This document shows positions 1 through 1,460 of a stretch of DNA of 1,460 bases, piece by piece. Under the pieces are notes generated by a model, which made no database searches, was not told where the DNA came from, and worked only from the letters and a program-made list of their open reading frames with translations. Source of the DNA: Escherichia coli (lineage in GTDB: Bacteria > Pseudomonadota > Gammaproteobacteria > Enterobacterales > Enterobacteriaceae). Positions within the stretch are counted from its first letter, which is position 1, and each line of letters opens with the position of its first letter. The position numbers were made by a program, and so were the translations under genes. Location of the stretch: assembly GCF_003334335.1 (NCBI RefSeq), contig NZ_QOWQ01000106.1; one strand, given 5' to 3'.

Positions 1-173
1 GCCTGCCGGGGCAGCAGTATGATGAGGAGTCCGGCCTGTATTACAACCGCCACCGCTATTATGACCCGCTGCAGGGGAGGTATATCACTCAGGATCCGAT
101 TGGGCTGAAGGGGGGATGGAATTTTTATCAGTATCCGCTGAATCCGGTTCAGTATATAGATTCAATGGGACTG
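1..173 (+). other. Rhs core C-terminal hyperconserved region, including the DPIGL motif (codons at 93-107) and the terminal PxxxxDxxGL-type motif [10 protein letters not shown] (144-173) that marks the core/CT boundary
   Basis: Direct translation. GC-rich (about 60% by hand count over 1-120) compared with the rest of the window. Confidence 0.85.
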
Positions 174-632
174 GCATCAAAATATGGACACTTAAATAAT
201 GGCGGATATGGAGCGAGACCCAACAAACCGCCTACGCCCGATCCAAGTAAATTGCCGGACATAGCGAAACAATTAAGACTGCCATATCCTATTGACCAGG
301 CCAGTAGTGCGCCTAATGTTTTCAAAACATTCTTCAGAGCATTAAGCCCTTACGACTACACACTGTATTGCAGGAAGTGGGTAAAACCAAATCTGACTTG
401 TACGCCACAGGATGATTCCCAGTATCCAGGGATGGATACAAAGACAGCAAGTGATTACCTGCCACAGACAAATTGGCCAACAACTCAATTACCACCAGGA
501 TATACTTGTGCAGAACCCTATTTATTCCCAGACATTAATAAACCCGATGGGCCAGCAACAGCAGGGATAGATGATTTGGGTGAAATTTTAGCTAAGATGA
601 AACAGAGAACATCGAGAGGAATAAGAAAATGA
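1..632 (+). CDS. Rhs-family (YD-repeat) polymorphic toxin, 3' end only (5'-partial; reading frame begins at position 3; stop TGA 630-632). Encodes the end of the conserved Rhs core plus a variable C-terminal toxin domain of unknown activity. May correspond to an orphan rhs fragment such as E. coli K-12 ybfO, but this cannot be confirmed from the window.
   Basis: Frame 3 is open from position 3 to 632 with no stop. Translation begins [57 protein letters not shown], which is the hyperconserved Rhs core terminus (YYDPxxGRYxxxDPIGLxGGxNxYxY...PxxxxDxxGL). The six-frame track starts this ORF at ATG 165 only because that is the first Met; the conserved Rhs sequence upstream shows the gene continues beyond the 5' edge of the window. 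Confidence 0.92.
174..629 (+). other. Variable Rhs C-terminal (CT) toxin domain, about 152 aa, activity unknown
   Basis: Sequence after the DSMGL boundary: [152 protein letters not shown]. It is rich in Pro, Tyr and Thr, has 3 Cys, and shows no nuclease (HNH, His-Me), deaminase or ART motif that I can recognise by eye. Lower GC than the core. Confidence 0.7.
614..620 (+). promoter_or_regulatory. Shine-Dalgarno sequence (GAGAGGA) for the downstream immunity-like CDS
   Basis: GAGAGGA at 614-620, 8 nt upstream of ATG 629; lies inside the 3' end of the Rhs CDS. Confidence 0.55.
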
Positions 633-685
633 AAAGAGTTTTGTTCTTTTTGCTGATGATATTTGTTAGTTTTGGTGTTATAGCT
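629..685 (+). other. Predicted signal peptide (19 aa) of the immunity-like protein; probable SPase I cleavage after VIA
   Basis: [19 protein letters not shown] followed by DCE. No canonical lipobox, because the residue before Cys is Asp, so a lipoprotein is unlikely. Confidence 0.6.
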
Positions 686-1198
686 GATTGCGAAATACAA
701 GCTAAAGATCATGATTGTTTTACTATTTTCGCTAAGGGTACTATTTTTTCCGCGTTTCCTGTCTTAAATAATAAAGCCATGTGGAGATGGTATCAGAATG
801 AGGACATCGGTGAGTATTATTGGCAAACAGAACTGGGTACATGTAAAAATAATAAATTCACACCAAGCGGGGCGAGACTCTTAATTCGCGTCGGGTCACT
901 ACGCCTTAATGAAAATCATGCCATCAAAGGAACGTTGCAGGAGTTGATAAATACAGCAGAAAAAACGGCGTTTCTCGGCGATCGGTTTAGAAGTTATATA
1001 AGAGCGGGTATCTATCAAAAAAAGAGCAGTGATCCAGTTCAGTTGTTGGCAGTCCTTGATAATTCAATCATGGTAAAATATTTTAAAGATGAGAAACCAA
1101 CTTATGCTCGAATGACAGCACATCTCCCGAACAAAAATGAGTCTTACGAATGTTTAATAAAGATACAGCATGAACTAATTCGTAGTGAAGAGAAATAA
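629..1198 (+). CDS. ybfC: Putative Rhs immunity protein (RhsI-like), 189 aa, with N-terminal Sec signal peptide; predicted periplasmic. Resembles E. coli K-12 YbfC in length and context (tentative).
   Basis: Complete ORF ATG 629 to TAA 1196-1198 with an SD 8 nt upstream. The start overlaps the Rhs stop (ATGA at 629-632), the usual arrangement of toxin/immunity pairs. N-terminus [21 protein letters not shown] has a positive n-region, a hydrophobic h-region and a V-I-A signal peptidase I site. Position immediately 3' of an Rhs CT domain. The gene symbol rests on recalled length (189 aa) and neighbourhood (rhs fragment upstream, H-rpt transposase downstream), not on a verified alignment. Confidence 0.8.
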
Positions 1199-1357
1199 AA
1201 TCTCTTCCTGAGAAAACAAATTAATCATTGTGAAAAATTATATAACTCATGGAATAGGTGTTTATTTTGCGTTCCATTTGCAGGGAAAGATCACGTAACG
1301 CTACTTTTTTGTACTAAATAATTCGAATTTTAAGTTCAACAATTGAGATACTACTTA

Positions 1358-1388
1358 TTGTCTAAAGCTGTTTTTCATAGCTTATACA
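1358..1388 (+). promoter_or_regulatory. Candidate sigma70-like promoter upstream of the transposase gene (speculative)
   Basis: TTGTCT at 1358-1363 (4/6 match to TTGACA) and TATACA at 1383-1388 (4/6 match to TATAAT) with about 19-bp spacing, in an AT-rich spacer. Weak match; this may simply be AT-rich sequence. Confidence 0.15.
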
Positions 1389-1412
1389 TGATCAAATACT
1401 CCTTACATAAAT

Positions 1413-1418
1413 AAGGTG
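1413..1418 (+). promoter_or_regulatory. Shine-Dalgarno sequence (AAGGTG) for the transposase CDS
   Basis: AAGGTG at 1413-1418, 5 nt upstream of ATG 1424. Confidence 0.5.
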
Positions 1419-1423
1419 AACAA

Positions 1424-1460
1424 ATGGAACTTAAAAAATTGATGGAACATATTTCTATTA
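1424..1460 (+). CDS. H-repeat-associated (ISAs1-family) transposase, N-terminal start only (3'-partial, runs off window)
   Basis: ATG 1424 followed by MELKKLMEHISI, which matches the N-terminus of E. coli H-rpt / ISAs1-family transposases (YhhI, YdcC, YbfD-type) as I recall it. Good SD upstream. Only 12 codons are visible, so the identification rests on a short recalled match plus the known association of H-rpt elements with rhs loci. Confidence 0.65.
   Translation, partial: MELKKLMEHISI

Follow-up and report, generated by a model that had tools for sequence, protein, structure and literature searches.

The stretch of DNA analysed here, a window of 1460 nucleotides (nt), is the ybfO(rhsC)-ybfC-ybfQ locus of Escherichia coli, and it is 100% identical to the rhsC-locus ybfO/rhs-ybfC-ybfQ region in many E. 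coli genomes. It contains the last 57 codons of an Rhs core, the 152-codon C-terminal domain (CT) of the same Rhs protein, ybfC, an AT-rich spacer and the start of ybfQ. The CT and YbfC are probably (probability about 0.72) an Rhs toxin tip and its cognate immunity protein, members of an unclassified family that, to judge from sequence features, would most likely act in the periplasm. The architecture, an Rhs tip followed by an immunity gene, is canonical; the toxin family is new and unnamed. The features of the module are the following.

3..173, + strand: 3' end of the Rhs core, covering positions 1205-1261 of 1261 of model NF041261; the TIGR03696 match ends at residue 57
93-107 and 156-173, + strand: core motifs DPIGL and terminal IDSMGL, the latter forming the core/toxin boundary, read from the translation
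174..290, + strand: Pro-rich variable linker (CT residues 1-39), unalignable between the enterobacterial and betaproteobacterial branches, with a predicted local distance difference test (pLDDT) score of ~45-53
291..629, + strand: conserved toxin core (CT residues 40-152), from alignments, the ratio of nonsynonymous to synonymous substitution rates (dN/dS) and AlphaFold2 (AF2) models
369-371, 399-401 and 507-509, + strand: codons of CT residues C66, C76 and C112, from translation and alignments
453-455 and 573-575, + strand: codons of CT residues D94 and D134, from translation and alignments
614..632, + strand: translational-coupling junction within the last CT codons, with a Shine-Dalgarno (SD) sequence GAGAGGA at 614-620, the ybfC ATG at 629-631 and the CT stop TGA at 630-632
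629..1198, + strand: ybfC, predicted immunity gene of 189 residues, RefSeq 'protein YbfC', with a homologue 3' of CT homologues
629-685, + strand: predicted signal peptide of YbfC (~residues 1-19, cleavage before DC), from sequence rules
689-691, 716-718, 842-844 and 1151-1153, + strand: codons of YbfC residues C21, C30, C72 and C175, from an alignment of 22 homologues

Frame 3 of the + strand is open from the Rhs core end through the 152 CT codons (174-629), the last of which is Lys at 627-629, followed by TGA at 630-632. The matches to the NCBIfam RHS_core model (NF041261) and to TIGR03696 both stop at residue 57 (…YIDSMGL), i.e., at nt 173, and therefore nt 174 is the exact core/CT boundary, with A as the first residue after …IDSMGL. 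This agrees with a sequence-only reading of the window, made beforehand, which had placed the start of the CT at 174 and its length at roughly 152 residues. An in-frame ATG lies within the last core motif (IDS-M-GL) and opens a 155-residue product (window 165-632), with no obvious SD sequence upstream. This ATG may explain short 'hypothetical protein' database calls, such as the 155-residue AFDB entry A0AAX2KDW8.

The pairing of the two proteins is carried by their linkage. A YbfC homologue of 188-205 residues lies 3' of the CT at every locus with readable downstream DNA, and usually starts inside the toxin stop codon; the loci come from E. coli, Phytobacter, Citrobacter, Acidovorax, Ralstonia, Paracidovorax and three metagenomes. 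The co-occurrence of the CT with its 189-residue partner, raised in the sequence-only reading, thus holds. Furthermore, identity falls in parallel in the two proteins (98/70/36% for the CT vs 93/65/31% for YbfC), the distant YbfC homologues being ~20-34% identical to that of K-12. Second copies and relics are also observed: a metagenome locus (L011, 7404-7976) bears a second YbfC paralogue, a Ralstonia locus (L018, 2270-3072) a CT tail fragment with a second YbfC-like gene, and Citrobacter youngae (L019, 5983-7062) an intact YbfC homologue with CT fragments only, that is, immunity kept after toxin loss. Three Joint Genome Institute (JGI) metagenome loci (L002-L004, 4400-11300) share the same vgrG-rhs-CT-ybfC-like organisation, with VgrG and Rhs split into different open reading frame (ORF) fragments in each. 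These breaks look like assembly or long-read indel errors and not like true pseudogenisation; each of the three has a YbfC homologue that is frameshifted near residue 114.

The site of action is suggested by YbfC. All 22 homologues possess a basic n-region and a hydrophobic stretch (12-residue Kyte-Doolittle maximum of 1.7-3.1), with small residues preceding the cleavage site. Every one of them keeps C30 and C175, and C21 and C72 are both present in 16 and both absent in 6, a pattern that suggests two disulfides formed in an oxidising compartment, one of them clade-specific. The signal-peptide-like N-terminus and the Cys pairs together point to export of YbfC to the periplasm, where the toxin would then act as well. 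The sequence-only reading had overlooked this signal peptide, the most informative clue to a periplasmic site of action. A lipoprotein nature of YbfC was considered and rejected: some homologues display a lipobox-like xSAC/xAAC before C21, but K-12 has an Asp at -1, and C21 co-varies with C72 as its disulfide partner.

The family is frequent in E. coli and small as a whole. The CT and ybfC are found together in 3,615 of 5,426 complete E. coli genomes, at an identity of at least 99% in 2,768 of them. A word-indexed search retrieves CTs that are 66-76% identical in Salmonella, Phytobacter and metagenomes, and an exhaustive hidden Markov model (HMM) search of 1.84 billion representative proteins yields 28 proteins, some of them 31-40% identical. 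A genome scan based on a six-sequence alignment assigns CTs of 31-40% identity to Acidovorax, Ralstonia and Paracidovorax; it also detects a second copy in Phytobacter and a remnant in Citrobacter. P0098, a Bacteroidetes-type repeat protein of 2084 residues (E = 3e-4), was dropped as a spurious low-complexity match. Nearly identical ybfO-CT regions (98-100%) also occur on short contigs of two metagenome-assembled genomes, labelled 'Flavobacterium psychrophilum' (L014) and 'Candidatus Nanosynbacter' (L015), two unrelated phyla; contamination by E. coli or mis-binning is the most likely source of both.

Wherever upstream sequence is available, the CT homologues follow an Rhs core ending in …IDPLGL, and no other delivery scaffold is seen there. 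In E. coli O157:H7, strain 746 and GCM74-1-1, the CT is the primary tip of a full-length Rhs of 1399 residues; in GCM74-1-1 this Rhs lies at the same locus, and its YbfC shares the accession WP_000832338.1 with K-12. In K-12-type strains (J53), the Rhs piece is a 5'-truncated orphan, ybfO, located downstream of rhsC-ybfB, the upstream Rhs fragment of K-12/J53 being annotated as a pseudogene devoid of its N-terminus. The window is equally 100% identical to strains of both contexts, and therefore cannot by itself tell an orphan from a working gene. The Rhs genes of O157 and 746 align to K-12 rhsC over nt 1-3729 and to the K-12 orphan from nt 2695 on, hence the orphan keeps ~1 kb of core as a recombination substrate. 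Such retained core homology is the arrangement described for orphan rhs-CT/rhsI modules (PMC3150448). K-12 rhsC itself carries a different tip and ybfB, so that the tip varies among otherwise homologous Rhs proteins.

The CT is under purifying selection. On the 116 conserved CT codons, dN/dS computed by the Nei-Gojobori method is 0.14-0.16 among E. coli copies, 0.24-0.32 when these are compared with Phytobacter-type ones and ~0.2-0.3 with distant ones, and the values for YbfC are 0.10-0.26. Decayed copies exist, as is normal for Rhs arrays: a Phytobacter orphan (L005) whose CT is frameshifted and whose immunity gene contains a stop, the CT fragments of Citrobacter youngae, and one E. coli strain in which the copy is 5'-truncated. 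Many database entries are partial.

Type VI secretion system (T6SS) delivery of the CT family is well supported by gene context. In Phytobacter ursingii (L016), the gene order is vgrG (TIGR03361, 603 bits), Rhs (DUF6531), this CT and the YbfC homologue, the PAAR motif of the Rhs protein being matched weakly (E = 0.036). VgrG is encoded directly upstream in a metagenome locus (L004), and T6SS genes (VgrG, DUF2169, PAAR-like genes, or SciN/VasE) lie near two other loci (L008 and L011). At the rhsC locus of E. coli, where the same route would presumably apply, no vgrG or T6SS linkage is seen, and the T6SS of enterohaemorrhagic E. coli (EHEC) has been reported as degenerate (PMC12981562).

Taken together, these features are compatible with the following mechanism. 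In strains with a full-length Rhs, the toxin would be packed within the Rhs shell, cut free immediately after …IDSMGL by the core autoprotease, and fired into a neighbour cell on the VgrG spike of the T6SS. It would act on the periplasm or cell envelope of the target and not on its cytoplasm: the Cys- and Pro-rich core of ~110 residues would fold in the periplasm, probably stabilised by a disulfide, and the folded toxin would damage or block an envelope component. YbfC, as a Sec-exported, disulfide-bonded and soluble periplasmic protein, would bind the toxin and shield sibling cells. The role of the K-12 orphan cassette behind rhsC-ybfB would be limited to that of a recombination reserve and a stand-alone immunity gene, and in other strains the identical sequence would be the working tip of the main Rhs. 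For the disulfide, a C66-C112 bridge formed after arrival in the periplasm is suggested because one Salmonella cluster loses only C76 (replaced by Tyr, with C66 and C112 kept) and because AF2 places C66 and C112 on core strands.

The composition of the CT is unusual. The ratios given here rest on approximate E. coli average frequencies: Pro reaches 13.8% (~3.1x), Tyr 6.6% (2.4x), Thr 8.6% (1.6x), Asp 7.9% (1.5x) and Lys 7.9% (1.8x), and Gln, at 4.6% (~1x), is not enriched. The sequence-only reading had listed Pro, Tyr, Thr, Gln and Asp, and only Gln has to be withdrawn from that list; the three Cys and the basic C-terminal tail that it also noted are both present. The domain further holds a single His, 2 Glu and 12 Asp, with an isoelectric point of 9.1. 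About 8 of the 21 Pro fall within the first 40 residues, in the linker, which is not conserved in distant relatives and which also contains the sole His (H6). The chain is soluble-like, with a maximal 19-residue Kyte-Doolittle mean of 0.14, a grand average of hydropathy of -0.82 and no hydrophobic segment.

The core is defined by four motifs, SPYDYTxYCxKW, PGxDxKTxxDYxP, (L/I)PxGYxCxEPYxFP(D/E)L and TAGxDD (TAGIDD here), the latter followed by a helix. P107, C112, A130 and D134 are invariant across the family, and C66, W69, C76, D94, P97, G109 and F118 are near-invariant, with counts that vary by alignment; D61, D88 and D/E120 are further acidic positions. No alignment column holds a conserved His, and most members are His-free in the core. 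The absence of His-rich signatures claimed from the sequence is therefore correct, whereas the absence of acidic ones is not to be relied on, as invariant D134 and near-invariant D94 among the 12 Asp leave room for an acidic centre. Since no His is conserved, a carboxylate activity (D94/D134) or stoichiometric envelope binding is favoured over a Cys-His or metal-His enzyme.

The basic tail calls for a different explanation. In 10 of 11 loci, the toxin ends in (R/K/S)-G-x-R-K-stop, and the DNA underlying G-x-R-K reads AGAGGA, GGAGGA, AAAGGA or CTGGAG, with A-ATG-A 5-8 nt later. All 11 loci have an SD-like purine run 5' of the immunity start, and 10 have an ATGA start/stop overlap, the exception (L012) starting its immunity gene at an upstream GTG with its own AGGAG. 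The junctions compared are those of the window and of L004, L007, L008, L011, L012 and L016-L020, and the dual coding is kept from E. coli to Ralstonia. Because the SD sequence and the ybfC start codon are embedded in the same DNA, conservation of the G-x-R-K tail would at least partly be due to dual coding in the service of translational coupling and need not reflect toxin function. The tail noted earlier, there taken as a feature of the protein, thus exists; its codons largely overlap the ribosome-binding site and start codon of ybfC. More generally, conserved C-terminal residues of a toxin gene can mirror the translation signals of the downstream gene instead of protein function.

Searches of the CT and YbfC against Pfam, NCBIfam, PADLOC and PHROGs match only the Rhs core, the CT having no Pfam match at E <= 10; none of the 26 CT family members matches Pfam at E <= 0.001. 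No significant match thus arises to known toxin families such as HNH, AHH, WHH and other nucleases, deaminases, ADP-ribosyltransferases, Tae, Tge, Tle or the Ntox/Tox families. Sequence searches of the PDB with the single CT, with a 26-member CT profile and with a 22-member YbfC profile return chance-level matches only (E > 0.07). The AF2 model has a pLDDT of 54 with 10 close homologues and 62.6 with 26 diverse ones, residues 61-120 reaching ~75-85 in the latter. The predicted elements are a short helix (49-57), strands at 65-72, 87-91 and 111-116, and a long C-terminal helix (132-149). Foldseek against AFDB50 returns family members only, with TM-scores (template modelling scores) of at most 0.48 even to identical sequences, which means that public models are no better defined than the AF2 models obtained here; against the PDB, nothing is found at E < 1. 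With models of such low confidence, novelty is supported for the family and not for the fold, the sequence-only reading having proposed a novel toxin fold. Its observation that the CT has no detectable catalytic motif is confirmed by the domain databases and the PDB sequence searches, with two corrections, i.e., Gln is not enriched and conserved Asp do exist.

Two proposals for the activity of a periplasm-acting CT have roughly equal and low weights. The CT may be a non-enzymatic envelope toxin, a possible though rather unlikely option in which a disulfide-stabilised core would bind an essential periplasmic or membrane component, or a basic amphipathic helix (~130-150) would perturb the inner membrane as a peripheral agent. 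The lack of a catalytic motif of any known class, the small size and basic isoelectric point of the domain, and a C-terminal helix present in both AF2 models, in the TAGIDD-helix segment that is the part best conserved between distant members, speak for it. The immunity protein of a pore-former is usually an integral membrane protein. YbfC, however, looks soluble, the CT has no hydrophobic segment, the embedded SD sequence and start codon account at least in part for the conserved basic tail, and a catalytic role would also fit D134 (invariant) and D94 (near-invariant).

Alternatively, the CT may be a carboxylate-dependent envelope hydrolase, e.g., a peptidoglycan glycosidase or a phosphodiesterase of lipid-II/undecaprenyl-linked precursors, in which D94 and D134 would be catalytic and the Cys structural; this too is a minority option, to be taken as doubtful. 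It would fit the predicted periplasmic immunity protein, the conserved D94 and D134, with D61, D88 and D/E120 as further acidic positions, and the His-free core, which by general enzymology is suited to two-carboxylate or Asp-Mg chemistry. No likeness in sequence or fold is found, however, to lysozyme-like enzymes, lytic transglycosylases, colicin-M-like proteins or other known envelope hydrolases, and no cleft can be made out in so weak a fold model. A wider proposal, that the CT core is a new fold with a His-free and new envelope activity, disulfide-dependent, active only once oxidised in the periplasm of the target, and carried by an Rhs cage of the kind usual for cytoplasmic toxins, is put forward tentatively and with some doubt. 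If true, such a core would define a new class of periplasm-acting Rhs toxins, directly testable in E. coli K-12.

A cytoplasmic enzyme of a known class (nuclease, deaminase or ADP-ribosyltransferase), too divergent to be recognised, with a YbfC N-terminus that is not an export signal, is improbable. Most characterised Rhs tips act in the cytoplasm (PMC12994826), the C112-A113-E114 (CAE) of the enterobacterial branch resembles the first deaminase motif, and one RefSeq-derived homologue is named 'putative deoxyribonuclease RhsC'. Yet E114 is replaced by K, S, T, I, R, N, H or D in relatives and no PCxxC is present, the missing His argues against HNH, His-Me and metal-His sites, no member of the 26 matches Pfam or NCBIfam, and the deoxyribonuclease label was given by the source with no domain match behind it. 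Moreover, all 22 immunity homologues keep the signal-peptide-like N-terminus, together with co-varying Cys pairs typical of oxidised periplasmic proteins. Individual classes were rejected: Cys-His peptidases or amidases (papain-like, NlpC/P60, Tae, L,D-transpeptidase-like), since C112 is invariant but no His is conserved; HNH or His-Me nucleases and HExxH-type sites, also for want of a conserved His; deaminases, as CAE is confined to the enterobacterial branch, its Glu being lost in relatives, and PCxxC is lacking; and helical pore-formers, as there is no hydrophobic or glycine-zipper segment.

The weakest explanation, also raised in the sequence-only reading, takes the CT for a degenerate, inactive orphan, a decaying remnant hitch-hiking with the Rhs element, and is very improbable: the truncated K-12/J53 fragment behind rhsC-ybfB, the decayed copies and the many partial entries would suit it, but purifying selection is seen in the copies of E. 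coli, Phytobacter and the betaproteobacteria alike (dN/dS of 0.14-0.32), the 152-codon ORF is unbroken and nearly identical in ~3,500 E. coli genomes, this sequence also tips full-length Rhs proteins and a VgrG-linked Rhs, residues are conserved down to 31% identity, and the immunity gene co-diverges. The interpretation offered by that reading is hence partly supported, an uncharacterised toxin family being retained and a degenerate remnant not.

Several points weigh against a periplasm-acting toxin-immunity pair. The signal peptides of YbfC were assigned from sequence rules only, the disulfide scheme is a guess given the odd number of Cys (three), and the weak AF2 models (pLDDT 54 and 63) give no structural backing to the proposed activity. 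In O157:H7 PNUSAE145590 (L006, 9456-10026), Rhs-CT is intact and ybfC is frameshifted by an extra T in a T-run of the signal-peptide codons (TTGTTCTTTTTG -> TTGTTTTTTTTTG). An intact toxin next to a broken immunity gene is odd unless the T6SS is inactive or self-delivery is rare; given the report of a degenerate T6SS in EHEC, it is perhaps tolerated. A literature search found no paper characterising YbfO-CT or YbfC and in-silico remarks only, such as a study of EHEC Rhs proteins that could give neither the RhsC tip nor its putative immunity protein a function (PMC7216683). The supplements of a Salmonella T6SS effector catalogue contain no motifs of the family. Finally, a Salmonella survey notes that the toxins carried by PAAR-Rhs scaffolds or fused to Rhs mostly act in the cytoplasm (PMC12994826), so that a periplasmic Rhs toxin would belong to a minority type, although not an unprecedented one, as exemplified by Tse5.

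Along the module, the GC content falls stepwise from 0.53 in the core to 0.43 in the CT, 0.37 in ybfC and 0.28 in the spacer. AT-rich extensions of Rhs elements typically show such a drop, which fits a horizontal origin of the tip cassette. The remaining features of the window are the following.

1199..1423, + strand: AT-rich spacer with a computed GC content of ~0.28
1372-1400, + strand: promoter TTTTCA-17-AATACT, with the sequence taken from PMC3946193 and located by reading the window
1424..1460, + strand: start of ybfQ, an ISAs1-family (H-repeat) transposase remnant (MELKKLMEHISI…) in the RefSeq annotation, outside the toxin module

In the literature, ybfOC is treated as one unit, and a constitutive RpoD (sigma-70) promoter has been mapped in the ybfC-ybfQ spacer (PMC3946193); at 1372-1400, it sits just 5' of the ybfQ start (1424). 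A scan of the window for consensus promoters and terminators does not list this published promoter and shows no excess over shuffled sequences, and for that reason an internal ybfC promoter is not claimed.

The pair matters beyond this locus. ybfO and ybfC have long been K-12 genes of unknown function, and about two thirds of the complete genomes of E. coli contain them; their pairing gives them a testable role. YbfC would guard its bearer when kin attack by T6SS, and the CT would serve as a weapon where it is borne by a full-length Rhs. As this small unnamed family lacks the residues of the common toxin classes, identifying its target could uncover a new mode of damage to the Gram-negative envelope. 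Transcriptomes of Shiga toxin-producing E. coli show higher rhsC and ybfC in strains associated with haemolytic uraemic syndrome (log2 fold changes of 8.5 and 4.2; PMC6033998), and adaptive evolution of a W3110 derivative that produces salicylate gave rise to a nonsynonymous mutation in ybfC (PMC11954222).

The pair can be compared with four known systems. YbfO-CT has a His-poor, Asp-bearing region and an immunity protein predicted to be periplasmic, as do colicin M and Cmi; in contrast to colicin M, it lacks DxYD(x5)HR, shows no match in sequence or fold and would be delivered by an entirely different route. Colicin M is a phosphodiesterase of lipid II with a small, His-poor, Asp-reliant catalytic region, and Cmi is a periplasmic, disulfide-containing protein. 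Tae, Tlde1 and NlpC/P60-type enzymes require a catalytic His. This His has no conserved counterpart in YbfO-CT, which gives no HMM match to these enzymes. The Tae/Tai amidases, Tge/Tgi, Tlde1 and Tox-Act1 do resemble the pair in opposing a signal-peptide-bearing immunity protein to a periplasm-acting toxin, although their toxins are mostly stand-alone cargo whereas YbfO-CT is an Rhs tip (PMC12994826).

Tse5 (RhsP1), with its partner Tsi5 from Pseudomonas aeruginosa, has no similarity in sequence or fold that could be found with YbfO-CT. Its immunity protein is membrane-embedded. According to two reports (PMC9637101, PMC10684867), Tse5 is Rhs-delivered with a target outside the cytoplasm, as proposed for YbfO-CT. 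Tse5-CT is a hydrophobic pore-former, whereas YbfO-CT is devoid of hydrophobic segments and YbfC has the look of a protein soluble in the periplasm.

The Rhs-CT/RhsI modules, orphans included, are the fourth system (PMC3150448; PMC2935791). YbfO-CT and YbfC depart from them in that the CT belongs to no named family, and in that YbfC is predicted to be exported, with a putative periplasmic site of action instead of the usual cytoplasmic one. In both cases, a variable CT begins right after the end of the core and is followed by a small immunity ORF, one and the same tip occurs both as an orphan downstream of a full-length rhs (K-12) and as the end of a full-length rhs elsewhere, and the orphan retains ~1 kb of core homology on which recombination can draw.

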